Positions 42,430-62,905 of a stretch of DNA of 64,000 nt are shown here, piece after piece. The stretch spans positions 19,348 to 83,347 of IMG/VR virus record IMGVR_UViG_3300033121_000823, one strand, 5' to 3'. Numbering within the stretch: position 1 is the first letter of the stretch; every line of letters starts with the position of its first letter. The stretch is from a virus. Its lineage: Duplodnaviria > Heunggongvirae > Uroviricota > Caudoviricetes. Under the pieces are notes generated by a model. It had not been told where the DNA came from and did not search any database. It saw only the letters and a list, made by a program, of their open reading frames with translations. The position numbers were made by a program, and so were the translations under genes.

Positions 42430-42656
42430 CCTTCTTCAATTACTATTGCGTATAACGATGCTGGATTAGTTAATGCTAGCTCAGTAGTTATACTTATCCA
42501 AGTACCATCATCTAATTGTAGATGAAGAACATTACATGCTATTGCATCAACTGATATTATTTTTTTTCCTATTAATTTTTCAGGGTCAATCTTCATTTTA
42601 CATTCCCCACGGTTATATGATATGAATCGAATGGATACCGATACTTTGGAAGACAT
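42417..42656 (-). CDS. hypothetical protein
   Basis: 79 aa ORF. Confidence 0.35.
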   Translation of the reverse strand: MSSKVSVSIRFISYNRGECKMKIDPEKLIGKKIISVDAIACNVLHLQLDDGTWISITTELALTNPASLYAIVIEEGWKE

Positions 42657-42967: not shown

Positions 42968-44032
42968 TCATAATACTGTTGTTTTATCCTTATAAGTTGT
43001 TCCATAACTCTTCCACTTGATTGGTGATGAAATTAATGACTCTGAAAAACCTTTCGGCTTCTTATCGCACCAAGTTAAGAATATTCCGTCAGGTTTAACA
43101 ATTCTTTCAGCATTTTGAAAGATTCTTAAATTGTCACCAAATGTTCCATACTTGATTGGACCTTGATTTTTGTTGAATTTATTATGGTCGTCACCTAAAT
43201 TAATTCCAATTTCGGATTCGTTGAACGGTCCATCACCATGCCTTGAAAAGAATGTACGAATTACTCCAACAATTTCGGCGGTAATCCCTCTTAGTTTACA
43301 AAAATCTAGTGCATATCGAGGAGTTACACTGCTCCAAGTAGTGTACGGAATCATTCCATAAACTTCATCTAATCCAAAACCTTGAGTTCCCTCAAAAATA
43401 TAACACTTAAAGTGTTCTTCATATGGAGCTTCAAACATTTCAAGCGTTTCACCACACCATGACCACGGATTAAAGCTTATTAGCTTTTCAAGTATTTCAT
43501 AAGTACCAGAATAATTATAAAAAGAATCTATATATCTCTCTTTCATGAGATAAAGCTTATCTAGCTTATCCTGTACAGAGTCTCCATAAAAGATTGCGTC
43601 ATTGCCATACTTTAGGAAATATTCCTTAGTCTTTCCAACTCCAACTCCACAACTTAAATATCCATCATGGAAATCCATATATTTTTGGAGTGGAGTAGTT
43701 ACTAAACATTTAGGATGTATCCTCATTACATCTCTAAAATTTACAAAATTCTTCAACGCTTCATATTCACGACGCATTGCCAATGGTTCTACAATAGAAT
43801 TCCTATCATGCAATGTTTTCACCCCATGAAATGTTCCACTTCCAAATTGTGAGAAGATATGACTATGACCACTTGGTAAAACTACTCTATGTCCAGCCTG
43901 ATGGCCACCACAAAATCTGACATTTACTACGTCAGATGGAAAGTGCGTCTTAACGGCGTTAGCCGTAAAATAATCTACTGCTGTACCCTTTCCCTCATCA
44001 CCGAATCCCATACCAACTACAATTTTATTCAT
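42968..44032 (-). CDS. adenylosuccinate synthetase family protein (PurA-like, possibly PurZ)
   Basis: GFGDEGKGTAVDY (P-loop GDEGKGK), CGGHQAGHRVV (GGHNAGH), FEGTQGFGLD (FEGAQG); IMP-site motif GTTGRGIGP diverged to CGVGVGKT. Confidence 0.7.
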   Translation of the reverse strand: MNKIVVGMGFGDEGKGTAVDYFTANAVKTHFPSDVVNVRFCGGHQAGHRVVLPSGHSHIFSQFGSGTFHGVKTLHDRNSIVEPLAMRREYEALKNFVNFRDVMRIHPKCLVTTPLQKYMDFHDGYLSCGVGVGKTKEYFLKYGNDAIFYGDSVQDKLDKLYLMKERYIDSFYNYSGTYEILEKLISFNPWSWCGETLEMFEAPYEEHFKCYIFEGTQGFGLDEVYGMIPYTTWSSVTPRYALDFCKLRGITAEIVGVIRTFFSRHGDGPFNESEIGINLGDDHNKFNKNQGPIKYGTFGDNLRIFQNAERIVKPDGIFLTWCDKKPKGFSESLISSPIKWKSYGTTYKDKTTVL

Positions 44033-46710: not shown

Positions 46711-46781
46711 GCGTAGCGAGTAGTCCCGCAGGGAATCGAACCCTAGAAGCCGACTTTATAAGAATCAGCCGTACAACCAGT
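46711..46781 (-). tRNA. tRNA, anticodon probably UAU (Ile-AUA type)
   Basis: Acceptor GGTCCTG/CGGGACT with GU pairs, anticodon stem TGATT/AGTCG with loop CTTATAA, T-arm TAGGG-TTCGATT-CCCTG. Confidence 0.4.
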
Positions 46782-46815
46782 AGCCAGGACCATACTGCCT
46801 TTCGGCAGTTTTAAT

Positions 46816-47277: not shown

Positions 47278-48105
47278 CTACTTATCCTTTAAAGGAAGTT
47301 GAATAAATGGAGTTCCATTTGAGCCGCTAACCATAGGCAACTTACCATCCCACTTTTCCATAGCCTTGTAACTTAGAAGTTCCGGCGAAAGACTCTTAGT
47401 AATAGTTTCATTAGCTTGAGCTTCTGCTCGTGCTTTTTCCAAAATTGATTCTGCTTCACCTTTTGCCTTAGCAATTGCTTGTGCTGCTTCAGCTTCAATC
47501 TGCTTAACTTTATTCGCTGCTTCAATAGCTCGCTGCGAACTTTCAATAGTCGCGGAAATAGAATCCTTTACTTTTTCCGAAACTTGAATCTTTCCTACAA
47601 AGGCCAGCATATCAAATGCAAAGCCACGCGGCCCCAATTCTTTGCGTAAATCTGCCAAAACTTCATTAAGTAGAAGTTCACGTTTTTCACCCAACATCTC
47701 TACAGCTTTGTACTTGCCGGCGTGGCGAGTAATAGCGTCACGAACCTTTGAACGCATATAGTAATGTGTAATGTACTTTGCATCTTGTCGTAGTTCCTGA
47801 AAAATCGTTGGAATGAACTTTTCTTCAATACTATAGGATAGTGCCACATCAGCTTTTAGGACTTCACCCTCTGACGAGTTAAATGAAATCGCTTCATCAA
47901 TTGGACTCCCCTCATTAATATCTTCAGTCCAAACTACATTTTGGGTAAATGTAGGGAATTCGTAAATACGAGTTGTCCACTTATTGTAAGGAATACGACC
48001 TCGCAATAGTTCGGACGCAGTTCCCTTATCGCCACCCCAATAATTTACTTTAACACCAACCCAACCGGGCTCAATTGTTTCACAACCAACACTCATAACC
48101 AACAT
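47278..48105 (-). CDS. SPFH/band-7 (HflC/stomatin-like) protein
   Basis: N-terminal TM, SPFH core, C-terminal coiled coil EAEAAQAIAKAKGEAESILEKARAEAQA. Confidence 0.6.
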   Translation of the reverse strand: MLVMSVGCETIEPGWVGVKVNYWGGDKGTASELLRGRIPYNKWTTRIYEFPTFTQNVVWTEDINEGSPIDEAISFNSSEGEVLKADVALSYSIEEKFIPTIFQELRQDAKYITHYYMRSKVRDAITRHAGKYKAVEMLGEKRELLLNEVLADLRKELGPRGFAFDMLAFVGKIQVSEKVKDSISATIESSQRAIEAANKVKQIEAEAAQAIAKAKGEAESILEKARAEAQANETITKSLSPELLSYKAMEKWDGKLPMVSGSNGTPFIQLPLKDK

Positions 48106-48154
48106 ACAGAATACAAAAAACAGTACAATACCACCAACTGCAAACTTAAACTGA

Positions 48155-48340
48155 TTAATCGTTTAGATACTCCTTGAAAAACTTTGGAACGTAATGATAT
48201 AATAAGAGGAACCATACAATTAAGGTTAAAATTCCACCAGTTAGTGCAAAATCCATGGAAGCTGCCATAAAACTGGTAGATACTTCAATAATTAGTGCAG
48301 TCAATAAGACTGTGCCTACTAGGCGAATTAAATGCTTCAT
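48155..48340 (-). CDS. small membrane protein
   Basis: 61 aa with two TM helices. Confidence 0.4.
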   Translation of the reverse strand: MKHLIRLVGTVLLTALIIEVSTSFMAASMDFALTGGILTLIVWFLLLYHYVPKFFKEYLND

Positions 48341-49431
48341 AATACACGAGTTACTTTCTCGGGCGATGCCCGCATTAAGGTTATTGGATTTATGTCAGTC
48401 TCTCCATTGTCGTACTTCGTCTTAGCCTCGAATAGGAAGTTATTGAAAGGACAATCCTTTATTGCCAACGCAAACTTCTTTCGCGACTTTTCATCCTTAA
48501 AACAGAACCAATGATTAGACATTGTTTCCATTATTTTTTGAAGTTTTTCCTCTAAGGCTCGTGCCTGCTTCTCAACATATGGAAAATAACATATTACTTC
48601 ATCAAGTTCTCCATTCAATATATATTCGATTAAACGTGATTCCGACTGTATATTCCCATTGTTTGCCATCCGGTGGAGCATTAAGTAGGTGGAATTTTTC
48701 ATCTTGAACCGCAAATTATTGCGGTCGCGAAGAACAAACCCCTCAAAAGTTTTATCCGTTCGCTCTAGATTTGCTATGAACGCCTCAACATCCATGATAT
48801 CGCCGAAAGAATATTCTTCAGGCATCTCCACACCTATTTCTTTTCCTATTACTTTTGTGATTGGATGAAGTAATTCAACTTCTCCATCAAATACCGTTAA
48901 TAGGAAAAGAGATGGTGTATTGTATAGGCGAACAACTTGATTATATCGCGAACACAATTCAAAGACATATGTCTTCGTTTTTTCCAATCGTTGGAAGAAG
49001 TTTTCCGGGGCGGCTAACATAAATAGTTGTCGCCACGTTATAAAATCATTTACATTCCTGCCGCCAAAACTTCCACGCGTTTGTACGTGCCATTCTCCAT
49101 TCCAATAGTAAACTACGATATACGAGCCATCTTCCTTGAAAGTTGCTACGCTTTCCTCAAACTGAAATTTCTTCATTTCATTAGGATATTCACCCCAATT
49201 AAAGAAACGGTAAAAACCGCGAGCACATAATGACCAATCTTTGGAATCTAGAGTAAGTGCCCGACATTCACGAACTATCGGCTCAAACTTCATCTTAGAG
49301 GAAGCTATTTGGCCATAGTTGAGGATTACTCGACTATCCGTTGGATGCTTTATAGCATTTATTCCATAATAATGGTTTAAAAGAGATAAGTCTCCATTAT
49401 TCTTTATTAGAAACTTTTGAACGTCGAGCAT
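48337..49431 (-). CDS. RNA ligase 1 (Rnl1-like)
   Basis: FKEDGSYIVVYYWNGEWHVQTRGS aligns with T4 Rnl1 [24 protein letters not shown] around Lys99. Confidence 0.65.
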   Translation of the reverse strand: MLDVQKFLIKNNGDLSLLNHYYGINAIKHPTDSRVILNYGQIASSKMKFEPIVRECRALTLDSKDWSLCARGFYRFFNWGEYPNEMKKFQFEESVATFKEDGSYIVVYYWNGEWHVQTRGSFGGRNVNDFITWRQLFMLAAPENFFQRLEKTKTYVFELCSRYNQVVRLYNTPSLFLLTVFDGEVELLHPITKVIGKEIGVEMPEEYSFGDIMDVEAFIANLERTDKTFEGFVLRDRNNLRFKMKNSTYLMLHRMANNGNIQSESRLIEYILNGELDEVICYFPYVEKQARALEEKLQKIMETMSNHWFCFKDEKSRKKFALAIKDCPFNNFLFEAKTKYDNGETDINPITLMRASPEKVTRVL

Positions 49432-49688
49432 TATTCCTCAACCTTAATCAAAAGTGAATCTTCAGTAGGTTGCGACACAGTCAATCCAAAAGAAGTTAAC
49501 TCAACATGAACACGACTAATAATGTCAAGATTGTCATGATAAAAGGTGAATGTTGGGGCTTCGCCACAACCATCCCACTTTTCAATCTTTTCATATAATT
49601 GGTCATATAGTTCTGACGCGATAGCGTTACATTGCATACCAAATGCCACTCTCCGTTCTTTAACCAATTCTTTAATATCTTTATCCAT
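49431..49688 (-). CDS. hypothetical protein
   Basis: 85 aa ORF. Confidence 0.35.
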   Translation of the reverse strand: MDKDIKELVKERRVAFGMQCNAIASELYDQLYEKIEKWDGCGEAPTFTFYHDNLDIISRVHVELTSFGLTVSQPTEDSLLIKVEE

Positions 49689-49696
49689 TTTTACCT

Positions 49697-50047
49697 CTAA
49701 TCAGATGAGTCTACATCCCAAATTTTTCCACACACTGTACAAATAAGACGATTATAGCATCGTCCTAAATTTTCCAAATGAACATAGTTATGTCCAGGAC
49801 ATGACTCTTCGTTAGGAATAATTCCACTTCCATGGCATGAAGTACATATACAGCGGAAGTGACTATGTAAGTGACGATTTTTCGAAGTATTCTTATACCG
49901 TCCTTTAATTCGATATGCATTTATGCGAAGATTCCACCCGCCATATCCGCGGCATACATGGCACACCTTATGTGTATGTGGAATTTTAAGGCGACGAATT
50001 GGAAAATCTAAAAAGGCATCTTTATCATTTGGAGTTAGATACTTCAT
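49697..50047 (-). CDS. Cys/His-rich zinc-binding protein
   Basis: CHVCRGYGGW ... CTSCHGSG ... CTVCG. Confidence 0.4.
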   Translation of the reverse strand: MKYLTPNDKDAFLDFPIRRLKIPHTHKVCHVCRGYGGWNLRINAYRIKGRYKNTSKNRHLHSHFRCICTSCHGSGIIPNEESCPGHNYVHLENLGRCYNRLICTVCGKIWDVDSSD

Positions 50048-50508
50048 AACAAATTCCTATGTTTACTTACCACTGATGAAATTTCTTCAAAAGCTCGCCT
50101 ATACGCATCTTCCTTAGGAACTATTTGTTTTAAGTCTCCATAGTGCATCTCAATACATTGAAAGAGAAGGTCTTTAATTTCAGCTTCTCGTGGAACGTAT
50201 GGAAGAGTACTTTCTTGATAAGCCTTTTCAAGGCGTTTTTCCGATTCCTTAAAAAATTCTCTAATCCAATTTTCTCCCACATCACCACGGCGAATTGCCT
50301 TCATTAGTTCTTTAGCTCTGGTTAAGTCTATTGTTCCAAGAGTAAGAATTTGTTCAACTTCGTCGAGTAAGCGAACTACGTGGTATAAAAATTTTACATC
50401 TGTCATGTATATTTTTCTAGATTCAAATCTTTTTGATTTTTTCATACCTTTATTAAAAAGAAGGTAATATTCTATTAATTCATTATCCGTTAAATTTTGC
50501 AAGCTCAT
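50044..50508 (-). CDS. hypothetical protein
   Basis: 154 aa helical ORF. Confidence 0.4.
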   Translation of the reverse strand: MSLQNLTDNELIEYYLLFNKGMKKSKRFESRKIYMTDVKFLYHVVRLLDEVEQILTLGTIDLTRAKELMKAIRRGDVGENWIREFFKESEKRLEKAYQESTLPYVPREAEIKDLLFQCIEMHYGDLKQIVPKEDAYRRAFEEISSVVSKHRNLL

Positions 50509-51094
50509 ATTTAGCTACCTTCATACATAAATCTTTAAAATCTTGATTATTATAAACATTTTTTAATTTATTAATATCTTTATGAACCCACTGAACATTC
50601 CCTTCAATATAACCTAATTTTGAATCTATTCTATCAAGAGATGCGGTATGATTACTTAAGCTTAAAGAAATATCTTCTCCAGATAAAGCACATTTTTTAT
50701 TTTGTTTTAAATATAGTTCATAAATATATTTTTCTGTAATTTCAAATATAATATATCTCTGTTTTGCATTTGAAAAAATAGAACGAAAATATGTTTTTGT
50801 TAGTTCTTTATATCCTTGAAAGTTTCTTTTAGATTGTATGCCCTTTTTACAACCACATGTTTTAGTTTTTCCATTCCTTAAATCACTTCCACATGCTATA
50901 AAAATTTTCCCACAAATGCACTTACATTCCCAATATGCTAAATTTCTTGCCCGTTTTGTTTTAAAGGTTTCTGGAGCAATAACTTTTCTTATGACTATAC
51001 AACTTCCATAACTTTTACCAGTTTCGTTCTTTAAATTAGATGCTTCTTTTTTCTTTTTTGTTTTCATGTATATCTCCTTTGTATAGAGATACAC
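50483..51094 (-). CDS. Mob-like HNH homing endonuclease paralog
   Basis: CKCICG...CGC and ASLDRIDSKLGYIEGNVQWVHKDINKLK. Confidence 0.5.
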   Translation of the reverse strand: MYLYTKEIYMKTKKKKEASNLKNETGKSYGSCIVIRKVIAPETFKTKRARNLAYWECKCICGKIFIACGSDLRNGKTKTCGCKKGIQSKRNFQGYKELTKTYFRSIFSNAKQRYIIFEITEKYIYELYLKQNKKCALSGEDISLSLSNHTASLDRIDSKLGYIEGNVQWVHKDINKLKNVYNNQDFKDLCMKVAKYELAKFNG

Positions 51095-51110
51095 CGTTTA
51101 GGTTATGATA

Positions 51111-51728
51111 TTAATCTTTGACTACGATATTTCGTCTATTTATTTCATTTTTAATATCTTGTAGAGTTGTTTTGTGAGAAACGCCTAATCTTTTTTCAAG
51201 ATTGTGTATTTCTTTTATTTCTTCCATATCTTTAGTACTAGAAGCTTTATGAATTTGCGAAAATGCGTAACCTTTAAACGAGTGCCATGCTTTCTTACTT
51301 AGGAATAAGTCCCTTCTTTCCCTAACTAGATTTCCGACCTGAGTAGAATGGATAACACACTCCAATGGAGTGTATAACGAGTCAACCATGTTGGGATTGC
51401 ACTCGGAAGCTAAGGCAAAGTAGTCAACAATATTGTATATCGTGACATCATACTGCTTATCTTCATCCTGAATGTGATGAAGTTGATAGGAAGAGAAACG
51501 ATTATTCAATGTACGCCACTTTCCAAAACCGACAAGTTGTCGGTCAAGATGTGGGAATAGTTCACTTTTTGGAGGGATACAAAATCCATATATGTCGACG
51601 TCTGACCCACCATTACTTACATGGTAGGCTTGACTGCCCATAATTGTTAGGTAATGAATATTATCAACTATCCATGCTTCGCATCCCGGCAGTAACTTCT
51701 TATCATATAACCGTTTAATCAAATTCAC
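51111..51728 (-). CDS. Pol-beta-superfamily nucleotidyltransferase, unknown substrate
   Basis: GSQAYHVSNGGSDVDIYG fits the GS-x9-DxD minimal NTase motif. Confidence 0.45.
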   Translation of the reverse strand: MNLIKRLYDKKLLPGCEAWIVDNIHYLTIMGSQAYHVSNGGSDVDIYGFCIPPKSELFPHLDRQLVGFGKWRTLNNRFSSYQLHHIQDEDKQYDVTIYNIVDYFALASECNPNMVDSLYTPLECVIHSTQVGNLVRERRDLFLSKKAWHSFKGYAFSQIHKASSTKDMEEIKEIHNLEKRLGVSHKTTLQDIKNEINRRNIVVKD

Positions 51729-52179
51729 ACAATACCTCGCTTAAATCAATTTCTAGTTCACTTTCTATAAATGGAACATAAATAGCACGTTCAAATGTAT
51801 CATTCCATTGGTCTTCATTGAGGCATTGGATAAAAAATTCATCCAACAATCCATCATCAATATCTAAGATTTCCATACATATTCTATGTCTTGCAGCATA
51901 CTCTTTACAGTCTAACTTTCCTTCAGCATCATACGTTTCGCCTTCGTAAAGGAAGGCAAAATGCCAAGATGATTGAGGAACATCATTGAAAGTACCAGCA
52001 ATCCACTTCTTATTACATTCAATTGGATATTCAGTTGACGCAAACTGAATTACCTTGAATGATGACATGTCACAGCCATTCTTTTCCAAGTAAAGATAGG
52101 CGGCGTATACACCTACTAAGCAGCCACCATTATTAATTGTTGGAATTTGAGATGTTACTTTGAAGAAGTTATAGAGCAT
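51715..52179 (-). CDS. hypothetical protein
   Basis: 154 aa ORF. Confidence 0.4.
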   Translation of the reverse strand: MLYNFFKVTSQIPTINNGGCLVGVYAAYLYLEKNGCDMSSFKVIQFASTEYPIECNKKWIAGTFNDVPQSSWHFAFLYEGETYDAEGKLDCKEYAARHRICMEILDIDDGLLDEFFIQCLNEDQWNDTFERAIYVPFIESELEIDLSEVLCEFD

Positions 52180-52182
52180 ACT

Positions 52183-52443
52183 CTACTCCGTAATATTCCA
52201 AGCTTTCTTAATTTTGGAAACCGTATCTTCATCAACATGTTGAATCAAATAACATTGGTCTAGAAATGCCTCATTAGAGCCTCCAGATTTATGGACACCA
52301 CCATCTGTCATATCTAAGAATGTAACTACATCAAAACCATAGTCAGCATCAAAATGTGTTTCCTTAATACAGACACATACGTCCATACCGTAGGAATCGC
52401 CAGTCAATACTACATCGCCGACTTTACAGTTATAAAGGTTCAC
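52183..52443 (-). CDS. hypothetical protein (TAG stop, same frame as next gene)
   Basis: 86 aa ORF. Confidence 0.4.
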   Translation of the reverse strand: MNLYNCKVGDVVLTGDSYGMDVCVCIKETHFDADYGFDVVTFLDMTDGGVHKSGGSNEAFLDQCYLIQHVDEDTVSKIKKAWNITE

Positions 52444-52585
52444 TTTTTTGCCCTTCTATTTGAAATCACTTTTAATCAACATTCTATGTTCCTAAAGCAT
52501 ACGAAAATATTTTTCGAAATAAAAAGTGCCCGGAGGTTCCGCCATTATACTTGGAAGGAACCTACCGGGCAAGGGGTCAGAAAAA

Positions 52586-53158
52586 TCAGCAACTGCATGT
52601 GAAGAACGAGCCGCCACCGTCCTTATTCTCGTACTTTGTTCCCTTAATTCCATCTAACTCATTATAGTGAGTCCAAAATTCGTCGGGAACAGATTCACCA
52701 TCAAAGCGTGGGCCGTGATTTACGTAATCCCCATATTCAACATATCGCTTTCCATACTCGACAACCTCATCAAAATCCATTCCATAACATGCTGCCCATT
52801 TGGTAATCCAGCCAATATGGCTATCCTCATATCTTTTTTCTAGTTTTTTAGAATATGAATCATGGTCGAAAGAGTCATGTTCCCATGCATGGCGTAATGA
52901 AGAGATACTACCGGGATACAAACAAAGGAGGCACGTATCGTCATACGTTTTATCCTTCTCAAATGGATTAACTACTGCTACGTGAGGTCTAAATGAACAT
53001 GAGACATAGTATGTTCCGTCAATTTTCTTAATGCCAACATGGTCACCGGGCCATACAGGTTCACGAACCTTAGCAACAATGACCGCAATATGTAGAGCAT
53101 CTCTTACGCCAACATCCTCATCAGTCAACTTTTTCAAAAATAGATTATCCTGCGACAT
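52586..53158 (-). CDS. hypothetical protein
   Basis: 190 aa ORF. Confidence 0.4.
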   Translation of the reverse strand: MSQDNLFLKKLTDEDVGVRDALHIAVIVAKVREPVWPGDHVGIKKIDGTYYVSCSFRPHVAVVNPFEKDKTYDDTCLLCLYPGSISSLRHAWEHDSFDHDSYSKKLEKRYEDSHIGWITKWAACYGMDFDEVVEYGKRYVEYGDYVNHGPRFDGESVPDEFWTHYNELDGIKGTKYENKDGGGSFFTCSC

Positions 53159-54629
53159 TACTGCGAACCTCCTTTAAAGTATACTCTTTGAGTAATTTTC
53201 CATTAAGAAAAACTGGTTGCATAATATTCCACATCTTAAAAGATGCATTATATTCTTCCTTCGATAAATCTTCAACAAGCTCAAGTTTGGAAGTACGTTT
53301 TACTCCAAGTAAACCTCTCGCAGACTTCTTAACTCCATCATCAGTCTTTGGGTCTTTAAATACGTTGATAGACTTCCCATCTACTTCTCCATAAGTAGTC
53401 TTAACTGCAAATCCAAACGTATCTCTAGTAGTATACCTATAAGTGAATGAGCCAATTCCAAGAACAGGGATATTACTTGCGAAACCCTTACGTTTTAAGC
53501 CCTCTAAAATATCTCTTTGACGTTCCAAAGTAATTGAATCGCCATAAATAATTCCAATGTGTGGGTCAAGACTCTTGTAACCCTTACGAGTAAAGGAACC
53601 GCCGAAAATCTTATGCATCATTTCAACAGAACCATAATACTCTGGAGTTCCAAATGTAGCATCTTTATCGCCACAAATAATTTTAGTTGGATTACCGGAA
53701 TCGGGCCTGATTGTAACCTTACCACTCCTATTCATAATTTCATTCTTCAACTTTGGAAGAATTTCTGTAATGACCTTCCAATAGTCATAAGAATCACATA
53801 CAATGGAAACTATTCCATCTGGATATACTTCAGTGATTAACCGCTTAAACTGTTCGAGTTCTCCAGTCAATAAATCTTTTCCACTCGCGAGAATTGCTAT
53901 AGTTTGTGTTGAATGCTCTGTAGCAACAACAGATGTTCCAATTAGTCCTGTAGCACCATAATAGTGCTTAAGAAATTTTACGGCAGGAACTGTATCTGTA
54001 CCAGTAAATGATAATAAGTGGCCAGCTCCACTTAAACATGCACTTTCTAAGCCAGACATCCCTCTATAAGAGAAATCATGCCCTTGCCATTGCACAAAAT
54101 CTCTATCGCCAACCGTTTCATCGGCATATTCATTAAATACCCGTCTATATTCAGCAGCAATAGTGGCGGAAGTACATGGTTCCCAAAGTACATTCGACAT
54201 ACTTGTTTCTAAGAAGTTTGTTAACCAGAAAAAGTCTGGCAATGTATTATGAATAGTATACATTGGTACACGTAGAGGAACTTTAGTGCCCTCTGGTACT
54301 GCACAAATCTTAATTGGAAGATATCCTAATGTATGTAAATCACTTACATGCTTAGATGAAATGTCGCGACCAACAAAATCACGAATATTTTCTTCATGCT
54401 CTTCGAGAACAGAGCTTTTCGGTCGATTAAAAAAGTTATCATTCCACTGACGAATCAAATAATCCTTAATGTAATATTGTAATCCAAAAAATACAACCTC
54501 ATTAATATTTGGAATACGAGACCCACGCGGTGTAAAATTTGAATAAATTCGTTCAGTGTCTTGAGGATACTGATTTCTGTGGTCTAACTTATATGAATCA
54601 GTATATGTCAATGGCATCATTTCAATCAT
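53145..54629 (-). CDS. NAMPT-family enzyme (NadV or Namat)
   Basis: 494 aa; N-terminal LTYTDSYKLDHRNQYP and overall length fit the NAMPT family. Confidence 0.7.
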   Translation of the reverse strand: MIEMMPLTYTDSYKLDHRNQYPQDTERIYSNFTPRGSRIPNINEVVFFGLQYYIKDYLIRQWNDNFFNRPKSSVLEEHEENIRDFVGRDISSKHVSDLHTLGYLPIKICAVPEGTKVPLRVPMYTIHNTLPDFFWLTNFLETSMSNVLWEPCTSATIAAEYRRVFNEYADETVGDRDFVQWQGHDFSYRGMSGLESACLSGAGHLLSFTGTDTVPAVKFLKHYYGATGLIGTSVVATEHSTQTIAILASGKDLLTGELEQFKRLITEVYPDGIVSIVCDSYDYWKVITEILPKLKNEIMNRSGKVTIRPDSGNPTKIICGDKDATFGTPEYYGSVEMMHKIFGGSFTRKGYKSLDPHIGIIYGDSITLERQRDILEGLKRKGFASNIPVLGIGSFTYRYTTRDTFGFAVKTTYGEVDGKSINVFKDPKTDDGVKKSARGLLGVKRTSKLELVEDLSKEEYNASFKMWNIMQPVFLNGKLLKEYTLKEVRSNVAG

Positions 54630-54780
54630 TAGAGTACCCCTACCAAAATTTTAATTTGTTTTATTATTTTATACAGCGTATGAAATTTCTAAACATTGAC
54701 CAACTAGTATGGTATCACTTGGAGCGTCTCCAATATCATTACATAATTGTGGGGCATTGATTTTTAATGTATACACTATA

Positions 54781-55644
54781 TCAATCCTTCAAAATATCAT
54801 AGAAAAAGTTAATACCGTCCATCTGTTCATCACGGAATGAATTAGTAGTTGCTACCCAATCAATGTTGGGAATGGGGAGTAATTTGCTAAAGATTCCATG
54901 GTATACAGCAAGACCAACATGTTTGGCACCGTTTTCCTTTAAGAGTTTTGCAGTTCCGGCAAAAGTCCCACCACCATCACATAAATCGTCTAGAATTAAG
55001 CAGTTATTAGTCGGCTTTCCTTCAACAATTGTGAATCCAGTCAACTTACCATTTGGTTCTCGTACTTTTTCACACAATACTGTATCTGATGAACGTAAAA
55101 AGTTAAAACGGTCAACAGCGCCCTTATCGGGAATAACAATGGTTGGAAAATTGTCATCGCGTACATTTTTGTATTCACTGATTGAATTATAGAAAAATTC
55201 TTGCCCTTGTATTGGAAGAATAGTATTCTTTTCAGCAAACTTCTTATTTACCAACAGGTCAAAAAAGCTTTCACTGTGTGGACAATGAATCCATACATCG
55301 GAAACACTAAGATATTCCGATAAAATATCTAAGAATACCTTTTCTGTCCACGGACTTACATACTCTGTAGTTCTGTCCATTCGTTGGGCAGATAGGTACA
55401 AAATTTCCACAATTGGTTGTGTAGCACCATTCTTAGTAACTGTATCTAAGAGCATACATAGACGAACTAAGTCATCCCCCGTCTTAATACGGGCGAAAAT
55501 ATGTGGGTCACGCACAATCTTCTTAAGTGTGAAGTGCGGCATACCATCTGGCATTGTTACCCACGAAAGTTGCATACGTCCATCGTCAAAAATGTTTTTA
55601 TACACTAGATGTTTCTCCAAGTATTTTAAGTAGTCTAAGCTCAT
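54781..55644 (-). CDS. Prs-family enzyme (PRPP synthetase or ADPR-PP synthetase Adps)
   Basis: PRPP-binding loop CLILDDLCDGGGTFAGTAKLLKENGAKHV aligns with Prs [29 protein letters not shown]; divergent N-terminal half. Confidence 0.65.
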   Translation of the reverse strand: MSLDYLKYLEKHLVYKNIFDDGRMQLSWVTMPDGMPHFTLKKIVRDPHIFARIKTGDDLVRLCMLLDTVTKNGATQPIVEILYLSAQRMDRTTEYVSPWTEKVFLDILSEYLSVSDVWIHCPHSESFFDLLVNKKFAEKNTILPIQGQEFFYNSISEYKNVRDDNFPTIVIPDKGAVDRFNFLRSSDTVLCEKVREPNGKLTGFTIVEGKPTNNCLILDDLCDGGGTFAGTAKLLKENGAKHVGLAVYHGIFSKLLPIPNIDWVATTNSFRDEQMDGINFFYDILKD

Positions 55645-56278
55645 GTGTTGAATTAGTTAAATCATGTACTTCATCGAATCCATTTACATTAAATAATCCA
55701 TGAAGAAATCGTAATGGATAGTCTTGATAAGGAATGATTTCCTTTAGTTCCTTAACAGATTTATTTTGACAATAATCATGCCCATACAAGTGTTGAGCAA
55801 TTCTCTGTATAGAGTTACGATGACAATCTAAATAGCGGCTATAAAAATAGTTACAAGCCTCATGAATTGATGGAACGGAAAATACGCGGCAGTCAAAAGT
55901 GCCGTAAAAGCCCGTCTTATCATTTCTCATTTCCTCCGTAAGGAAGATAGAACATGTAGTAGCGAATAAACTGCATAGTTTGTTGATTCGGCCCGAATAG
56001 ATTAGCTGAGACTGTTCCTCTGTTGGCCGCCAACAAAAACTTATTTCATCAGATGAAGTGAAAGCATATGGAAAATTATACTCTTCACAGATATATTCCA
56101 TACACTTTTGCATTACCCAAGAGAAATTACTATCAAATGGCTGAGTTAGTTTATGCCTTTTCAGAACTTTTGAAAAGTTAACTCCATCAACTCTTACAAT
56201 AATCCACTCATTATGAGGAGCTTGTAAATCGAGTTTCTTTTCATAGTCTTTCATACGATTCGACAAATCGAGAGTCAT
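55598..56278 (-). CDS. hypothetical protein
   Basis: 226 aa ORF. Confidence 0.4.
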   Translation of the reverse strand: MTLDLSNRMKDYEKKLDLQAPHNEWIIVRVDGVNFSKVLKRHKLTQPFDSNFSWVMQKCMEYICEEYNFPYAFTSSDEISFCWRPTEEQSQLIYSGRINKLCSLFATTCSIFLTEEMRNDKTGFYGTFDCRVFSVPSIHEACNYFYSRYLDCHRNSIQRIAQHLYGHDYCQNKSVKELKEIIPYQDYPLRFLHGLFNVNGFDEVHDLTNSTHELRLLKILGETSSV

Positions 56279-56883
56279 GTAATTGTTACCTTAAATGGTT
56301 TATTACTTGGAATATACTTTGATGTTTCTGTCAACCTAATGAATAGACGTTTACCATCTCTAATAGCAGGAGTCGCACGATGCAAGTGCTCACTATACGT
56401 ATACACTTGCAAAGGTTTAATAGAAGAAAAAATGATAGGGCGAACCTTACAAGCAAGGCCAAGTACCTTATCCCAATTTACTCGCCCCTTATCCGGCACA
56501 TATACCGTCCTATCCTCGCTTAAGAATTGTGTGGCCGAAACATCACTACTAATAAATAGATTGTGAATCTCACCGACCGGTTCTTCGATTGGATTTGGTG
56601 TACAGTCTATATGCCAAAATGGCAGGGCAGGCACATCATCTTTTTTCAAGTTATGCACTTTAATATCTACAAGTACATACTTATGAATATTAAAAATGTT
56701 GATTGAAGATAATACTTCGCGGACATAATCCGTGGTATTCTTCATTACGAAATCGTAATCGCCCCATTTATATGAGGTCGCCGGAAAATCTTCTTCTTTT
56801 GGCGGCGGCATACATTTTTTCCCTATTAACGCGGACGGTAGTCCGCTAATTGTGTATAGGGATTGATTTACTTGAATATCCAT
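56275..56883 (-). CDS. hypothetical protein, possible Fe(II)/2OG oxygenase-like
   Basis: FWHIDCTP (HxD) and later HLHRAT. Confidence 0.25.
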   Translation of the reverse strand: MDIQVNQSLYTISGLPSALIGKKCMPPPKEEDFPATSYKWGDYDFVMKNTTDYVREVLSSINIFNIHKYVLVDIKVHNLKKDDVPALPFWHIDCTPNPIEEPVGEIHNLFISSDVSATQFLSEDRTVYVPDKGRVNWDKVLGLACKVRPIIFSSIKPLQVYTYSEHLHRATPAIRDGKRLFIRLTETSKYIPSNKPFKVTIT

Positions 56884-57042
56884 CGCTCTTCCTTTGGAAG
56901 AAAGGATTGAAGCATAATAAAGTTAACAGTTTGTCTTACTAGTAAGTTTCTTACTTCTTCATTAACTTCAGAAGAAAAGATAATTTGAATTGTAAGTAGA
57001 GTAATAACAGTAATTTGAAAAATGCTACCAATTTTCAAGAAG

Positions 57043-57267
57043 TTATAAAGCATTAAGCACCTTCAATACTTCATACTTAGCACTCTCCAAGTGTTCCTCA
57101 GTCCCATAAGCAAATACATTGGCAGGACTGTTCTTACACCAAATTTCATACTGTTCATCAGTTAGAATATGCCACGAATAATTCTTTCCATTATTAAAGA
57201 CTTGTCCGACCATTCCTTTAGAACGAATAGCACATAGTTCATTGCTCAAATTAGACATGTGAAACAT
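57043..57267 (-). CDS. hypothetical protein
   Basis: 74 aa ORF. Confidence 0.35.
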   Translation of the reverse strand: MFHMSNLSNELCAIRSKGMVGQVFNNGKNYSWHILTDEQYEIWCKNSPANVFAYGTEEHLESAKYEVLKVLNAL

Positions 57268-57833
57268 TATTGTGCAGTCTCCTCATTGTGATGGTCAACA
57301 AAATTGATTGGACGGCTAGCCATAATTTCCCTAACTTCATTGAATGATAGAGGTTTTTTCCAAACGTCCCATCCAATGTCGATAGTTTTTCCGCCAATAT
57401 CCTCTAATGAACCATGTGAATGTCCATATAAGCACCATGAACCATGATGGCTTTTTTGCCATACACGCATGGCGTAATGAGACATTACAATAAATTGTTT
57501 ATTGATTCGTCGTTCTAGGAACGAATGAGTTTCCGTAAATAAGTGTCGATAATACTTTCGAATGTTATCGTCATGATTGCCATAAATAAGAATGATATTT
57601 CGGCATCGAACCATGTTTCGGAATTCTAGAACACGTTCCTTACCACCAAATGACCAATCGCCCAAATGGTACAACGTATCATTCTCATCTACATGAGAGT
57701 TGATTACATCTGCAATATGCTTCGTCATAACAAATTCATCGGCGTAGGTTCTATATCCTTTATCCCAGTCTGATACAATTGGACCTGCGATATTCTTATG
57801 AAACGCATGAGTGTCCGAAATAAAATATTCCAT
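57267..57833 (-). CDS. calcineurin-like metallophosphoesterase
   Basis: FISDTHAFH, HLGDWSF, YGNHDDN, GHSHG motifs. Confidence 0.65.
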   Translation of the reverse strand: MEYFISDTHAFHKNIAGPIVSDWDKGYRTYADEFVMTKHIADVINSHVDENDTLYHLGDWSFGGKERVLEFRNMVRCRNIILIYGNHDDNIRKYYRHLFTETHSFLERRINKQFIVMSHYAMRVWQKSHHGSWCLYGHSHGSLEDIGGKTIDIGWDVWKKPLSFNEVREIMASRPINFVDHHNEETAQ

Positions 57834-58508
57834 TTATCGTTGCTCCAACGTCGGTTTAAGCCATAAATCATCTTCAAACAAAAACCACATTCCAAATCCA
57901 TCTAGAGTCCTAAAAGAGCTAATACTATCCGCCCTGAACATCTTAAAGAGTTCTTCGCGAATTCTTTCTTTTGAAATACCAGACAAAAGACCTTTTAGGT
58001 CAGAATCATATAGAAAGGAAGAAATTTCCTTATCTAACTTAAATCCTAAGGTAATTGCGAAGCGAAATGCTCGCAAAATTCTAAGTCCATCCTCAGTAAA
58101 ACGCTTCTCTGGCGAACCAACACAACGGATAATTCGCTGAGCAATATCCTTAATTCCACCATGTGGGTCAATATACGTTCCATCGTACTTTGCGATAGCA
58201 TTCATCGTAAAGTCACGACGCTCCAAATCGTCGTAAATACTTCCAGCTTCAACCTTATCAGGATGTCTTCCATCATTATAAGCTCCATCCTTTCGACAAA
58301 GAACATAATCAGTAGTTCCAATACCTGGAATCTTAGCACGAATAGTTAGGAACTGTGGAGTTTCCAAAAAGATTGTTCCGCCAATTCTAAGAATTTCTTT
58401 CCTCATTTCATCGTATGATGATGCTTCTACAGAAAAGTCAATATCCTTACTATTCCTTCCAATAATTTCATCACGAACACAGCCACCAACCTTATAGAAC
58501 TTGACCAT
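57834..58508 (-). CDS. CCA-adding tRNA nucleotidyltransferase (minimal head domain)
   Basis: YKVGGCVRDEIIGRNSKDIDF is the class II CCA/poly(A) polymerase GGxVRD..D.D motif; likely start at MVKFYKVGG. Confidence 0.65.
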   Translation of the reverse strand: MVKFYKVGGCVRDEIIGRNSKDIDFSVEASSYDEMRKEILRIGGTIFLETPQFLTIRAKIPGIGTTDYVLCRKDGAYNDGRHPDKVEAGSIYDDLERRDFTMNAIAKYDGTYIDPHGGIKDIAQRIIRCVGSPEKRFTEDGLRILRAFRFAITLGFKLDKEISSFLYDSDLKGLLSGISKERIREELFKMFRADSISSFRTLDGFGMWFLFEDDLWLKPTLEQR

Positions 58509-58995
58509 AGAAGCCAGTCTCCGTGTCAAAAGTAATGTCCATCTTAATACCAGTTGCTCTAACGTCAAGCTTTCCACACTGCTCAATCAGATATTGAGTA
58601 TTTTGCCACCGCAAAACCATCTTATTTATGGTTCCAAATGGTACGTTATGAACGCCGCGATTAAAACATTCATCAGCATTAAATGAGAATGTTTCGTAGA
58701 AGATTACACTGGAAAAATACTTTTTAGCCAATTTAACATAATCTTTACATTCCTTCCACGTAATATTCATATTGTCGACAATTGGAATATTTCCATCAGC
58801 AAGAATCTTCTCGACTCTCTGCTTATTCAAGTTGTGAAATACTCCAAGTTTACTAGCATCAAATTGATAAGTTCCGTCCTTGATAAAGTACGAATCTGTA
58901 GAACAAATCAACGAGTTGTGATAATAGTGCATTTGGATAAAGTTAGCCAAAGTACTTTTACCACTACCCGGAAGTCCACGCATAATAATTAACAT
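58492..58995 (-). CDS. P-loop polynucleotide kinase-like protein
   Basis: Walker A GLPGSGKSTLA; 167 aa; adjacent to phosphoesterase and CCA enzyme. Confidence 0.55.
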   Translation of the reverse strand: MLIIMRGLPGSGKSTLANFIQMHYYHNSLICSTDSYFIKDGTYQFDASKLGVFHNLNKQRVEKILADGNIPIVDNMNITWKECKDYVKLAKKYFSSVIFYETFSFNADECFNRGVHNVPFGTINKMVLRWQNTQYLIEQCGKLDVRATGIKMDITFDTETGFYGQVL

Positions 58996-59039
58996 ACGAA
59001 TTCATTCTAGGCTCCAACATTATACTATGTAGAGACCTG

Positions 59040-59498
59040 TTACGCAAGGGGGTCAAAATATTGACGATAGAGTTTTGAATTGATGGGTTGTGCATACAAC
59101 CTTTTGAAAATATTTGATTCAATATACGGAACGTAGAGTTTGCTTAAAAGAAGTCTCTTGAATTCCATAATTGAAGTTACTTCAAAAAGTTTCCACATTC
59201 TGTAGTAGAAAAGGCTGTAGCAACTTCTAACAAATTGTATTCCTTCCTCATTAAATCTATTTGTAAGGAAATAAGATAGTGGCTTATTTCTTTCATTGTT
59301 GCATCCATAGCAACATGCGACGACATTCGCCGGGTAATTCTTACCACCTAAACATACAGGAATTATATGTTCTGTTGTACGAGTTGTTGGCGTCAAATTC
59401 TTATTACAGAAGAAGCATACTTTTACTTCTTTAGTTACTGGAATTATACCACTTCTTTTTCTTTTACGTTTTGATTTAACTACCATTTTAGTTTCCAC
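59040..59498 (-). CDS. small HNH endonuclease
   Basis: CFFCNK...TEHIIPVCLGGKNYPANVVACCYGCNNERNK. Confidence 0.6.
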   Translation of the reverse strand: METKMVVKSKRKRKRSGIIPVTKEVKVCFFCNKNLTPTTRTTEHIIPVCLGGKNYPANVVACCYGCNNERNKPLSYFLTNRFNEEGIQFVRSCYSLFYYRMWKLFEVTSIMEFKRLLLSKLYVPYIESNIFKRLYAQPINSKLYRQYFDPLA

Positions 59499-59731
59499 GC
59501 TTGTTCAAGATGCATTCTTTCGCGAAATATTGATAGTTCTAGCTCTATTTGATACTGTTGTTCTATCTTAGTAGATTCTTCAATAAATTTATCAAAGGTA
59601 TTCCAGCATCTTTGTGAAAGGTAGTATAAACTACCAATTCTCTTATAGTTCGGCCTATATTTCTTAACAAAGTCATTAAACAACTTATTGTTAACGTATT
59701 GTCTTTCAACAAGACGACACAGCTTAAACAT
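59480..59731 (-). CDS. hypothetical protein
   Basis: 83 aa ORF. Confidence 0.35.
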   Translation of the reverse strand: MFKLCRLVERQYVNNKLFNDFVKKYRPNYKRIGSLYYLSQRCWNTFDKFIEESTKIEQQYQIELELSIFRERMHLEQAWKLKW

Positions 59732-60068
59732 CAGTATTCTCCATCAAATTCAAGTAAGAGAATTGCGACGATTGCATATAGTGCAAACCACCAGAAACCA
59801 CACGTAAAAAGTATTGCAAGTCCAATAAGTATTACGACCAATTCAATTAGTTGCATCACTTAACCTCGTATTCAAAAGTCTTACAAAATTTGATGCATTT
59901 ATCTTTGCAAACATACCAAAAAATTGGCAAATAACGAGATTATCCTGAAAGACAAGAACTTGAGTAAATCTATCATCAACATCCTTATTGTACATTTCAT
60001 GTTCACGTCCGATATTCTGCGTAGTAAACACTTAGATGTTCCTTATGTGCGGCGAGGAGACTAGTTTA

Positions 60069-60348
60069 GCTACTACAAAAAGAAAGTAGTGATATAGCCA
60101 AATAGAAGAATAGCAAATGTTACAATATTTAGAGCTGTTAGCTTTACACACGTTGGGTATTTTTCATCATTGGGAATAAATTTCAAATTCGCTAAATTTA
60201 GAATTAACATGATTCCATACGCCTGAGGAAATGTCAACAAGGCAGTTCCAAAAGTAGTTACAATGAACCACGCCCATAAAAGCTTGAATGTAAGAGCCTA
60301 GAACATTCCTGTCAAAATAGCGTAAACAAAACTTCCAAAATGTGCCAT
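60069..60348 (-). CDS. small membrane protein with in-frame TAG at codon 17 and TAGTAG terminator
   Basis: RBS AGGAGAATTAAG-ATG, then MAHFGSFVYAILTGMF-TAG-ALTFKLLWAWFIVTTFGTALLTF... (74 more hydrophobic codons), ending TTG TAG TAG. No ATG/GTG near the start of the downstream part. Confidence 0.4.
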
Positions 60349-60358
60349 CTTAATTCTC

Positions 60359-60553
60359 CTAAGTCATAATGATAAAATCAACATCACCACCAACTTTACA
60401 TCTTTCCAAGAATTGTTTATCTGGAAAAACTATGACATTAGTTACAGTTTCCAAATCTAAAAATCCAAGATTATCACCAATTCTAGGAACGAAATTTGTA
60501 TTTTTACATACTTGTTTTAGTGTCTTGCTGCTTACAAAGATTATTCTATACAT
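60359..60553 (-). CDS. hypothetical protein (TAG stop), paralog of next ORF
   Basis: Shares PR(I/V)GD...FP.K..L with 60557..60784. Confidence 0.4.
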   Translation of the reverse strand: MYRIIFVSSKTLKQVCKNTNFVPRIGDNLGFLDLETVTNVIVFPDKQFLERCKVGGDVDFIIMT

Positions 60554-60556
60554 CGT

Positions 60557-60784
60557 TTACTCCGCAAAAACTATGGCAACGTAATCATTATTTGGATAAT
60601 TATTTCCAGGTAAATTTATTTTATTCAAATAATCTTTTGTTGGAAACAAAAGAACCTGCTTAACGACTGGAAATAATCCATTTACTTTAGGACAACATAC
60701 TAACATATCTCCTACACGAGGAATAATAGGAGCAATCATTACAAGCGATGAAGTCATACTAAAATTGGATATGTATATCTTCAT
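60557..60784 (-). CDS. hypothetical protein, paralog of 60359..60553
   Basis: 75 aa ORF. Confidence 0.4.
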   Translation of the reverse strand: MKIYISNFSMTSSLVMIAPIIPRVGDMLVCCPKVNGLFPVVKQVLLFPTKDYLNKINLPGNNYPNNDYVAIVFAE

Positions 60785-61076
60785 ACTAGCTCCTCAAACT
60801 GATTGAAGCAATTTGTACTCCATAGTAATCACCACGCATATCATATTGACGTTTATATTCATCAATAATTTTTTCAATGTCAAACTTCATTAGATAGTAT
60901 TGAGTAGTAAGTTGAATGACTACAATCAATCTGTTCGTTTCTTTTTCGATTACTAAGATTGAGTTCATGCTAATCGCGCCTTTCTAGCAAAGAAAGTAAA
61001 GTTTTCTATTATGTTGTACTTGTGATGGACGCAACGATTCTACTTCTTTTTGAGTTAGCATAAACTATTAATCCTT

Positions 61077-61787
61077 TTAAGATGTGGACGCAATTAATTT
61101 ACAATATCTAATAAATTCATCTTGTGATAACTCATTTTTCATATAATTAACAGTCCTATGTACTATTTGAATATTATCTTTAGTATAACCTAAATTATTA
61201 TTAATTCTATCTACTGATGCAGTACCATCAGTAAAAGATATTGAAATATTAGATAATATACATTTGTATTTTTGCTGAACCAGTAAGTTTTCTATGTCTT
61301 GTAATGTTATCTCAAATATTCTATTTTTCCTCTTAGATTCTCCTTTTAATTTTGAAAAATACCGTTTTATATTTTTAACTTTATTTGATGGAATAAATTT
61401 TGATGATTTATGACATAATATACATCCAGATTCATTATAATTAAATATATCTGCTTTTTTATAAGATATATTACCACAGTCGCATTTAGTTTGATAATAT
61501 ATAACTGGTCTATTTTTTATATATTCTCTTTTATATCCAATAACAGTTAATGTGCCGCGTTTTTCGCCAATTGGTATTGTTACACAATATTTACAATTAC
61601 GTTTATTATTTAATGTGTTAGCAACAATTATTTGTTCTGTATTACACTTTTTACATTTTACTAAAATAATATCTAAAGGATACTTATAGTGTTTACCTTT
61701 AGTTTTTTCTCCTACCTTATCTAAGATAGTATAGGTAGGATGATTAAGTTGTTTCCATTCATCATTAGTTTTATGTAAAGTAGTCAT
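61077..61787 (-). CDS. Mob-like HNH homing endonuclease paralog
   Basis: CDCGN...C zinc finger and ASVDRINNNLGYTKDNIQIVHRTVNYMKN. Confidence 0.5.
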   Translation of the reverse strand: MTTLHKTNDEWKQLNHPTYTILDKVGEKTKGKHYKYPLDIILVKCKKCNTEQIIVANTLNNKRNCKYCVTIPIGEKRGTLTVIGYKREYIKNRPVIYYQTKCDCGNISYKKADIFNYNESGCILCHKSSKFIPSNKVKNIKRYFSKLKGESKRKNRIFEITLQDIENLLVQQKYKCILSNISISFTDGTASVDRINNNLGYTKDNIQIVHRTVNYMKNELSQDEFIRYCKLIASTS

Positions 61788-61840
61788 TGTATATCCTATT
61801 CATGGTTTATCTATCCATGAATATATACACCTAACTACTT

Positions 61841-62789: not shown

Positions 62790-62833
62790 GTTTTTTCTCT
62801 ATTAACTTTTGATAAATCTGAATAATCGCGAAG

Positions 62834-62905
62834 TGTCTCTACTAGGACTCGAACCTAGATTTTGGGATTTAGAGTCCCTCGTATTTCCAATTATACGATA
62901 GAGAC
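62834..62905 (-). tRNA. tRNA with anticodon CUA (putative amber suppressor, or sense-UAG decoder)
   Basis: Perfect acceptor GTCTCTA/TAGAGAC, D GTAT-AATTGGAA-ATAC, anticodon stem AGGGA/TCCCA with loop CTCTAAA (C32 U33 C34 U35 A36 A37 A38), T-arm CTAGG-TTCGAGT-CCTAG. Confidence 0.5.

Follow-up and report, generated by a model that had tools for sequence, protein, structure and literature searches.

Introduction

Jumbo phages are known to encode an RNA-repair complement that comprises RNA ligases, polynucleotide kinases, 2H and calcineurin-like phosphoesterases, the nucleotidyltransferase RlaP (RNA-ligase-associated Pol-beta), a CCA-adding enzyme, Thg1, PTH2, transfer RNAs (tRNAs), NAD+ salvage enzymes, and NADAR proteins (Iyer et al. 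2021, PMC7824862, building on Burroughs and Aravind 2016); that work sees in them the response of jumbo phages when the translation apparatus comes under attack. Here we describe a 64,000-nucleotide stretch of the Caudoviricetes record IMGVR_UViG_3300033121_000823 (positions 19,348 to 83,347; hereafter the window), which belongs to a large uncultivated phage and probably holds a set of enzymes for keeping tRNA functional in the infected cell, as is already on record for jumbo phages. The window shares with that complement Rnl1-/Rnl2-like ligases, a kinase, phosphoesterases, RlaP, a CCA-adding enzyme, Thg1, tRNAs, NAD+ salvage, and NADAR, whereas it lacks PTH2 and RtcB. It further differs in having an Rnl5-type second ligase that a split intein fractures, a split RlaP gene, and a 2-oxoglutarate (2OG)-Fe(II) oxygenase coupled to Thg1 (PMC7824862).

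Two smaller systems also invite comparison. In phage T4, Pnkp and Rnl1 repair tRNA-Lys cleaved by PrrC. The window likewise encodes an Rnl1 homologue with motif I, with a predicted 5' kinase and 3' phosphoesterase nearby; unlike in T4, the phosphoesterase is a separate metallophosphoesterase and not a fused HAD phosphatase, and Rnl1 lies 9 kb from the kinase. The other is NARP1, an NAD+ reconstitution pathway (bioRxiv 10.1101/2024.02.11.579819).

The window has a G+C content of ~35%, and every substantial open reading frame (ORF) is on the minus strand. Megablast of positions 48000-60000 against 50,697 phage records returned a single 39-bp match and thus no close cultured relative, and metagenomic contigs from several Joint Genome Institute and Sequence Read Archive samples hold exact copies of window proteins, from which we conclude that the phage is uncultivated and was sampled as several strain variants. 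Genes resembling rIIA and rIIB, two sigma-factor genes, and a block of tRNA genes confirm that the phage is large. A first-pass annotation, made from the sequence alone, had seen in part of the window an extended tRNA/RNA repair toolkit consistent with countering anticodon-nuclease defences. Most of its gene identities are right; it erred on PTH2, the number of tRNA genes, and the description of RlaP, and it overlooked a Thg1-like enzyme. What can be observed directly in this region are family memberships, catalytic motifs, gene order, split architectures, and gene neighbourhoods that are conserved in other phages.

Rnl1 ligase and the kinase, CCA enzyme, and phosphoesterase genes

The genes with predicted roles in end healing, CCA addition, and anticodon-loop sealing are:

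58492-58995, minus strand: P-loop kinase of 167 amino acids, candidate RNA 5'-OH polynucleotide kinase (AAA_33, KTI12, phrog_505)
57834-58508, minus strand: short class II CCA-adding enzyme of 224 amino acids, head and neck only (PF01743, 1MIV)
57267-57833, minus strand: calcineurin-type metallophosphoesterase of 188 amino acids (Metallophos, Metallophos_2, aq_1665 1XM7, phrog_547)
48337-49431, minus strand: Rnl1-type ATP-dependent RNA ligase of 364 amino acids (PF09511, T4 Rnl1 2C5U, motif I KEDGS)

The Rnl1 ligase scores 68.5 bits against PF09511 in Pfam (1e-18; gathering cutoff 28.3) and matches T4 Rnl1 (2C5U, 5.3e-6) across residues 49-294, the alignment ending at residue 294 of 364 and so short of the C-terminal region, in which the family has its domain for tRNA anticodon-loop specificity. 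Its adenylylated-lysine motif I, KEDGS, aligns to the KEDGS of T4, and the gene is located 0.6 kb downstream of the C half of RlaP. The kinase matches AAA_33 (2.5e-7) and KTI12 (8.5e-7) in Pfam and the PHROG family phrog_505, annotated as polynucleotide kinase (2.6e-12). The metallophosphoesterase possesses all metal-binding motifs (DxH, GD, GNHD, H, GHxH) and is related to Aquifex aq_1665 (1XM7, 8.5e-9) and phrog_547 (8e-46). The CCA-adding enzyme matches PF01743 (1.5e-21) and the Bacillus stearothermophilus enzyme (1MIV, 8.8e-27), of whose 404 residues the alignment covers 23-203, and alignment to 1MIV and 6IBP identifies its motifs A (GGxVRD..DxD), B (RRD), and D (EDxxR). The end of the kinase gene runs 17 nt into the CCA enzyme gene, whose stop in turn abuts the phosphoesterase start. 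All four genes had been named in the first-pass annotation, which also placed the kinase, CCA enzyme, and phosphoesterase in one operon; these assignments hold, the kinase as a P-loop kinase and the operon as operon-like packing.

Related arrangements occur in other phages: in two unrelated cultured ones, Vibrio phage Chester and Escherichia phage nomo, an RNA ligase gene has homologues of the kinase and phosphoesterase on its flanks, and Arthrobacter phage Atuin encodes a nucleotidyltransferase, an RNA ligase, Pnk, and a short CCA enzyme within 5 kb, with the CCA enzyme less than ~3 kb from the ligase and Pnk. The short form of the CCA enzyme is present in 492 phage records, and our literature search on short phage CCA enzymes found no biochemical study. 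The Escherichia coli CCA enzyme carries a C-terminal HD phosphohydrolase domain, an association that the abutting CCA and phosphoesterase genes recall and that could clear a blocked 3' end. Unlike in E. coli, the phosphoesterase in the window is a separate calcineurin-type gene and the CCA enzyme stops after the neck.

An Rnl5-type ligase interrupted by a predicted split intein

The second ligase is encoded in two pieces with an endonuclease gene between them:

41644-42429, minus strand: Rnl5-type ligase N-extein and split-intein N fragment (PF21189 6.5e-9, Intein_splicing and Hint matches)
40861-41601, minus strand: free-standing HNH-type homing endonuclease, copy 1, between the ligase halves (phrog_374 3.5e-23, phrog_3322 1e-20)
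40266-40874, minus strand: split-intein C fragment and Rnl5 C-extein (PF09414 7.8e-22, Intein_splicing C block)

The N-extein comprises the N-terminal OB domain (PF21189) and motif I and ends in ...EEKIHG, which places KIHG at the splice junction. It is followed by an intein N fragment of ~94 amino acids (CVHEDT...VVHL) with an initial Cys and block B (TVDH). The C fragment of 35 amino acids ends in ...NGIIVHN, after which come a +1 Ser and the PF09414 nucleotidyltransferase domain. An N-terminal Cys, a TxxH block, an HN end followed by Ser, halves on separate ORFs, and an intervening endonuclease gene together identify a split intein. When its halves were fused in silico, the best matches in the Protein Data Bank (PDB) were NrdJ-1 (4.6e-10) and gp41-1 (2.2e-6).

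Joining the exteins in silico yields a protein of 334 amino acids that matches the Naegleria gruberi RNA ligase (6VT4/5COT, 2.7e-14) over residues 40-312. Its alignment to 131 uninterrupted phage homologues (at least 80% coverage) continues unbroken through the junction, and its identity to phage homologues is ~25-30%. It has an N-terminal OB domain and a nucleotidyltransferase domain and no C-terminal OB domain, which is the Rnl5 architecture. Since the spliced product matches the Naegleria enzyme and uninterrupted ligases across the junction, we conclude that the gene is that of an Rnl5-type ligase, predicted to seal 3'-OH RNA nicks, which would have to be made by protein trans-splicing. The domain order, OB then nucleotidyltransferase, is that of the Rnl5 enzymes of N. 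gruberi and Deinococcus radiodurans, from which the phage ligase differs in being encoded in two pieces. The first-pass annotation had listed a split Rnl2/5-like ligase here; the PF21189, PF09414, and intein signals agree with it and refine it to an Rnl5-type enzyme fractured by a split intein.

NrdJ-1 and gp41-1 are naturally split inteins from a study of fractured genes in environmental sequences (Dassa et al. 2009, PMC2677866). Those genes have the same order as the ligase locus (N-extein with IntN, an endonuclease ORF, and IntC with C-extein), and the intein described here is nearest to NrdJ-1 and gp41-1; the host gene in our case is an RNA ligase, whereas the term "RNA ligase" has 0 occurrences in that paper (PMC2677866). 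We found eight related ligase loci on metagenomic contigs, three of which end within the endonuclease gene or a short way upstream of it. The three-ORF layout is kept in all five that reach far enough (L010-L013 and L015, from five samples), and none of these five holds an uninterrupted version of the ligase. The endonucleases of the previously described fractured genes are reportedly Vsr-like/EDxHD, whereas those in the window match HNH and endonuclease VII PHROG families.

A split RlaP gene and a family of homing endonucleases

A second gene in pieces encodes an RlaP nucleotidyltransferase:

51111-51728, minus strand: RlaP nucleotidyltransferase, N half (PF10127 4e-11)
50483-51094, minus strand: homing endonuclease, copy 2, which splits RlaP (phrog_3322 9e-20, phrog_3118 HNH 1.8e-16)
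50044-50508, minus strand: RlaP nucleotidyltransferase, C half (phrog_388 nucleotidyltransferase 2.9e-13)

The N half scores 43.5 bits against PF10127 (cutoff 23) and has RNA ligases in its neighbourhood, which places it in the RlaP family, and the C half covers positions 239-338 of the 351 in the phrog_388 profile. Both halves correspond to one contiguous nucleotidyltransferase of Rhizobium phage RHph_I1_18, to which residues 1-167 of the N half (homologue residues 2-166) and residues 23-149 of the C half (homologue residues 170-295) align; concatenated, they give a one-piece alignment to that gene (7e-60). The N half had been described as an unassigned minimal nucleotidyltransferase, of which the enzyme class stands and the rest gives way to the N half of an RlaP-family gene. 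Unlike the ligase split, the RlaP split has no intein. Only one related contig, L001, holds all three genes of this layout, and two others end within it.

A single family of HNH-type homing endonucleases accounts for the breaks in both the ligase and RlaP genes; its three copies share a zinc finger and the pattern S[ILV]DRI..GY..N..VH...N..K. The third copy (61077-61787) lies in a 1.96-kb segment (59877-61838) with several small ORFs that is missing in strain variant L001, which indicates that the endonuclease family is actively reshaping the region.

2H phosphoesterase, Thg1-like enzyme, and a candidate accessory oxygenase

Two further enzymes with predicted roles at RNA ends and a candidate accessory protein are:

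42593-42967, minus strand: small 2H phosphoesterase of 124 amino acids (two HxT motifs, H49 and H117; fold)
55598-56278, minus strand: Thg1-like 3'-5' nucleotidyltransferase of 226 amino acids (PF04446 1e-28)
56275-56883, minus strand: 2OG-Fe(II) oxygenase-fold protein, candidate accessory of the module (predicted fold), its stop overlapping the Thg1 start

The first-pass annotation had listed a 2H phosphoesterase without a position; we locate it at the first of these genes, and its fold supports the assignment. Both HxT motifs are invariant among homologues, which places the protein in the 2H superfamily. Its homologues weakly match the RNA-repair 2H "Swiss Army Knife" family, its top structural neighbour is the anti-CBASS nuclease Acb1, and its gene is immediately upstream of the Rnl5 ligase. 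On the other side of the 2H gene is a short adenylosuccinate-synthetase homologue (354 amino acids, 42968-44032, minus strand), directly after whose TGA stop the 2H gene follows in the same frame. This PurA-like protein belongs to the PHROG family of 2-amino-adenylosuccinate synthetase (PurZ-like, 8e-44), and a PDB sequence search with it gave PurA entries only, the best being short archaeal ones.

The Thg1-like enzyme scores 100.4 bits against PF04446 (cutoff 29.2). Its catalytic VRVDG and SSDE align to 4KGK and 3OTB, and it is about equally close to the repair-type Thg1-like protein (TLP) of Bacillus thuringiensis (4KGK, 6.8e-14) and to human THG1 (3OTB, 1.3e-12). In place of the eukaryote-type HINNLYN motif, a mark of bona fide Thg1 that adds G-1 to tRNA-His, it has DCHRNSIQ, with DCH as in human THG1 and NSI as in the bacterial TLP. 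Thg1 is present in 157 phage records. Among the tRNA genes of Rhodococcus phage Weasels2 are RtcB, a Prs/Nampt pair, a phosphoesterase, Thg1, and a 2H "ligase".

The oxygenase was identified by its predicted fold alone, and a family profile search against PDB sequences returned no match. The family has ~180 cluster representatives, and in unrelated phages homologues of the protein are repeatedly found next to RlaP, RNA ligases, kinases, and RtcB. Its possible activities include the oxidative removal of base or ribose adducts from tRNA and the hydroxylation of a translation factor. A joint proposal, which we regard as doubtful, is that the oxygenase is an unrecognised component of phage tRNA-repair modules and that the split-intein Rnl5 ligase would have no known precedent among RNA-repair enzymes in its assembly through natural protein trans-splicing.

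tRNA genes

We found 20 tRNA genes in the window, 17 with ARAGORN, two with Rfam, and one that is interrupted by a group I intron:

8425-22908, minus strand: tRNA gene region with 18 of the 20 tRNA genes (ARAGORN, Rfam); the other two are at 46720-46791 and 62833-62905

The more than 25 tRNA genes of the first-pass annotation are thus reduced to 20, and the PTH2 that it had listed was not recovered: Pfam gave no PF01981 match in minus-strand ORFs of at least 60 amino acids (concatenated sets) or in larger plus-strand ORFs, and a six-frame motif search of the window found nothing.

Three of the 20 tRNA genes encode CCA (Ser(GCU), Phe, and Lys(CUU)), two encode CC, and 15 encode neither. The tRNA-His gene (17712-17784, minus strand) has an A73 discriminator, a C1:G72 first pair, and C at position -1, and encodes neither G-1 nor CCA. 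This is unlike the standard bacterial tRNA-His, which has G-1:C73. A73 and the absence of an encoded G-1 are also features of the tRNA-His of Rhizobium phage RHph_I1_18, another phage with Thg1.

Other tRNA genes of the window have unusual features. The Rfam group I intron (19734-20017) is in the anticodon loop of a tRNA gene at ~19672-20027 (minus strand) with the exons GGTCCGGTAGCTCAGTGGTTAGAGCGCCATTCTT / ATAAAGTGGAAGTCGTAGGTTCAATTCCTACCCGGACTA; the tRNA has a class I shape and is apparently tRNA-Ile(UAU). A tRNA with a CUA anticodon (62833-62905, minus strand), labelled Pyl by ARAGORN, is of the amber suppressor type; TAG serves as stop in several window ORFs. For the tRNA at 19455-19529 (minus strand), ARAGORN reports a four-base "taat" anticodon and assigns no amino acid, and the Rfam tRNA score is 50.6 bits.

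A predicted tRNA repair pathway and its alternatives

Taken together, the enzymes cover all the steps that the restoration of a cut tRNA requires and probably form a pathway that acts on both the anticodon loop and the acceptor ends. The P-loop kinase would add the 5' phosphate, and the metallophosphoesterase, the 2H enzyme, or both would take off a 2',3'-cyclic or 3' phosphate. RlaP, whose two halves would associate non-covalently, may refill a single nucleotide lost at the break. Rnl1 would then seal breaks in the anticodon loop, and the Rnl5-type ligase, rebuilt by protein trans-splicing of the gp41-1/NrdJ-1-like split intein, would seal nicks in duplex RNA. At the acceptor, the short CCA enzyme is predicted to add the 3' CCA, where needed after end clearing by the abutting phosphoesterase, and the Thg1-like enzyme to extend the 5' end in the 3'-5' direction; both of these activities would also suit the finishing of the phage's own tRNAs. 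Every substrate, the order of the steps, and the link to host defences are what we infer from the sequence. The pathway finds its support in conserved neighbourhoods in other phages, not in activity. In the window, the kinase, CCA enzyme, and phosphoesterase genes and the oxygenase and Thg1 genes form tightly packed groups that overlap or abut, and in Rhizobium phage RHph_I1_18 genes for PTH, RlaP, and a metallophosphoesterase adjoin tRNA genes.

A counter-defence role of the set is plausible and agrees with the published reading of this gene combination in jumbo phages (PMC7824862); several observations limit that role or weigh against the repair pathway. The window sequence points to no particular toxin as the one countered. 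The kinase consists of the kinase domain alone, and since it lacks the HAD (DxDxT) 3'-phosphatase of T4 Pnkp, the system is not of the T4 Pnkp type. In its content of P-loop kinase and metallophosphoesterase it is more like Clostridium thermocellum Pnkp, with the difference that these are separate genes here, and the PDB matches of the kinase to the kinase domain of that enzyme and to PSTK are weak (E ~0.03). The metallophosphoesterase family is very broad in phages (1159 records). The CCA enzyme ends where the body domain would start and thus lacks the tRNA-binding body and tail of characterised class II enzymes. The split ligase and RlaP genes could be inactive, and the composition of the phage's own tRNA genes offers CCA and Thg1 activity an ordinary maturation role without defence pressure. 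Nor is the addition of a CCA enzyme and a second ligase, from which the first-pass annotation had argued for pressure from several tRNA-targeting toxins, unusual in a phage: for CCA repair, this follows from the hundreds of phage records with the short CCA enzyme and the many with Thg1 counted above.

The maturation role deserves the closest attention. It holds that the CCA enzyme and Thg1 mainly finish the phage's own tRNAs, through 3' CCA addition and, at the 5' side, through G-1 addition to tRNA-His or the trimming and fill-in of ends, and are not there to undo attacks by the host. We consider this a serious possibility, if one to which we give somewhat less than even weight. It draws on the 17 of 20 phage tRNA genes without encoded CCA and on the tRNA-His without encoded G-1, which has its counterpart in the Thg1-bearing phage RHph_I1_18. 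However, almost all bacteria have a CCA enzyme of their own, and an absent G-1 is irrelevant in hosts whose histidyl-tRNA synthetase needs none. The Thg1 homologue lacks HINNLYN and resembles the bacterial repair-type TLP 4KGK no less than it does eukaryotic Thg1, and the CCA and Thg1 genes are embedded among healing and sealing genes, with the tRNA block 30 kb away. Maturation and repair are also compatible, as the ligases may still be repair enzymes when the other two serve maturation. A different view would have the kinase, metallophosphoesterase, and 2H protein act, together with the neighbouring NAD+ genes, on small molecules such as cyclic-oligonucleotide immune signals, ADP-ribose derivatives, or nucleotides. 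A NARP1-like Prs/Nampt pair is indeed located inside the cluster, and Acb1 is the top structural neighbour of the 2H protein. We nevertheless judge this view improbable: in phage nomo the kinase and phosphoesterase adjoin an RNA ligase and the 8 kb examined there contain no NAD genes, the 2H gene is directly upstream of the Rnl5 ligase and its homologues match the RNA-repair "Swiss Army Knife" family, and the kinase matches a PHROG family of polynucleotide kinases.

The last alternative concerns the two interrupted genes, which may be remnants inactivated by homing-endonuclease invasion, so that the effective toolkit would be smaller than it appears. Both genes are physically interrupted, in a region that is rich in mobile endonucleases and varies among strains by insertions and deletions. 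Against decay speak the intein splicing blocks and +1 Ser, which are all intact, and fragment sizes in the usual range of active split inteins; open frames and catalytic motifs persist in the exteins and in both parts of RlaP, and the RlaP halves cover their homologue without loss. The split ligase layout recurs on contigs from five samples, while the complete RlaP layout is found on one related contig only. Overall, inactivation of the two genes appears distinctly improbable to us.

If the tRNA-repair reading is right, the locus is one of the more complete single-locus examples of tRNA end repair in a phage, with 5' and 3' healing, gap filling, two types of sealing, and enzymes for both acceptor strands. 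It leaves the current picture unchanged, as the same combination is known in jumbo phages and cultured isolates, and it can serve as an annotation template for similar islands in uncultivated phages and as a source of enzymes: its short CCA enzyme, its Rnl5 ligase, and its naturally split intein, a relative of gp41-1 and NrdJ-1. It also advises that the needs of a phage's own tRNA genes be checked before its CCA and Thg1 genes are read as counter-defence.

Neighbouring NAD+, ADP-ribose, and alarmone genes

Between RlaP and the Thg1-like gene are two genes that form a predicted NAD+ reconstitution pair:

54781-55644, minus strand: Prs-like gene (PF00156, phrog_619)
53145-54629, minus strand: Nampt-family gene (PF04095, PF18127)

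The adjacency of a Prs-like and a Nampt-like gene, here amid RNA repair genes, is that of NARP1 (Adps and Namat), whose enzymes have residues that switch the substrate from ribose-5-P/PRPP to ADPR/ADPR-PP. In Vibrio phage Chester and Rhodococcus phage Weasels2, too, a Prs/Nampt pairing has RNA repair genes beside it. Farther away, the window encodes a NADAR domain protein (14092-14637, minus strand, 7.8e-48) and a protein that matches phrog_335, annotated as phosphatase, and appears Macro-like by eye (38823-39320, minus strand); both fit ADP-ribose-centred conflict functions. An HD protein (4839-5321, minus strand) was considered as DatZ and rejected, as it matches alarmone hydrolases of the RelA/SpoT type, with E values down to 2.5e-10 among RelA/SpoT hydrolase domains and small hydrolases of alarmones or (p)ppApp. 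This protein could reverse the pyrophosphorylation of tRNA CCA ends by toxSAS/CapRel-type toxins or degrade toxic alarmones.

Strain variants and possible host

Strain variants of the phage differ in the repair region by insertions and deletions, and the region is rich in mobile endonucleases. Related contigs have a 365-bp insert between the kinase and CCA enzyme genes (5222-5620 of L001; window junction near 58525). It codes for an ORF of 132 amino acids with an HSE...PCxxC pattern that appears deaminase-like by eye and has no match in Pfam, and whose C-terminal residues repeat the end of the window's kinase.

Two further proteins of the window, one with DUF1501 (7171-8385, minus strand, 1.5e-71) and one that is secreted and bears a cbb3-type cytochrome c motif (24956-25555, minus strand), belong to families typical of Planctomycetota-like bacteria and may hint at the host.

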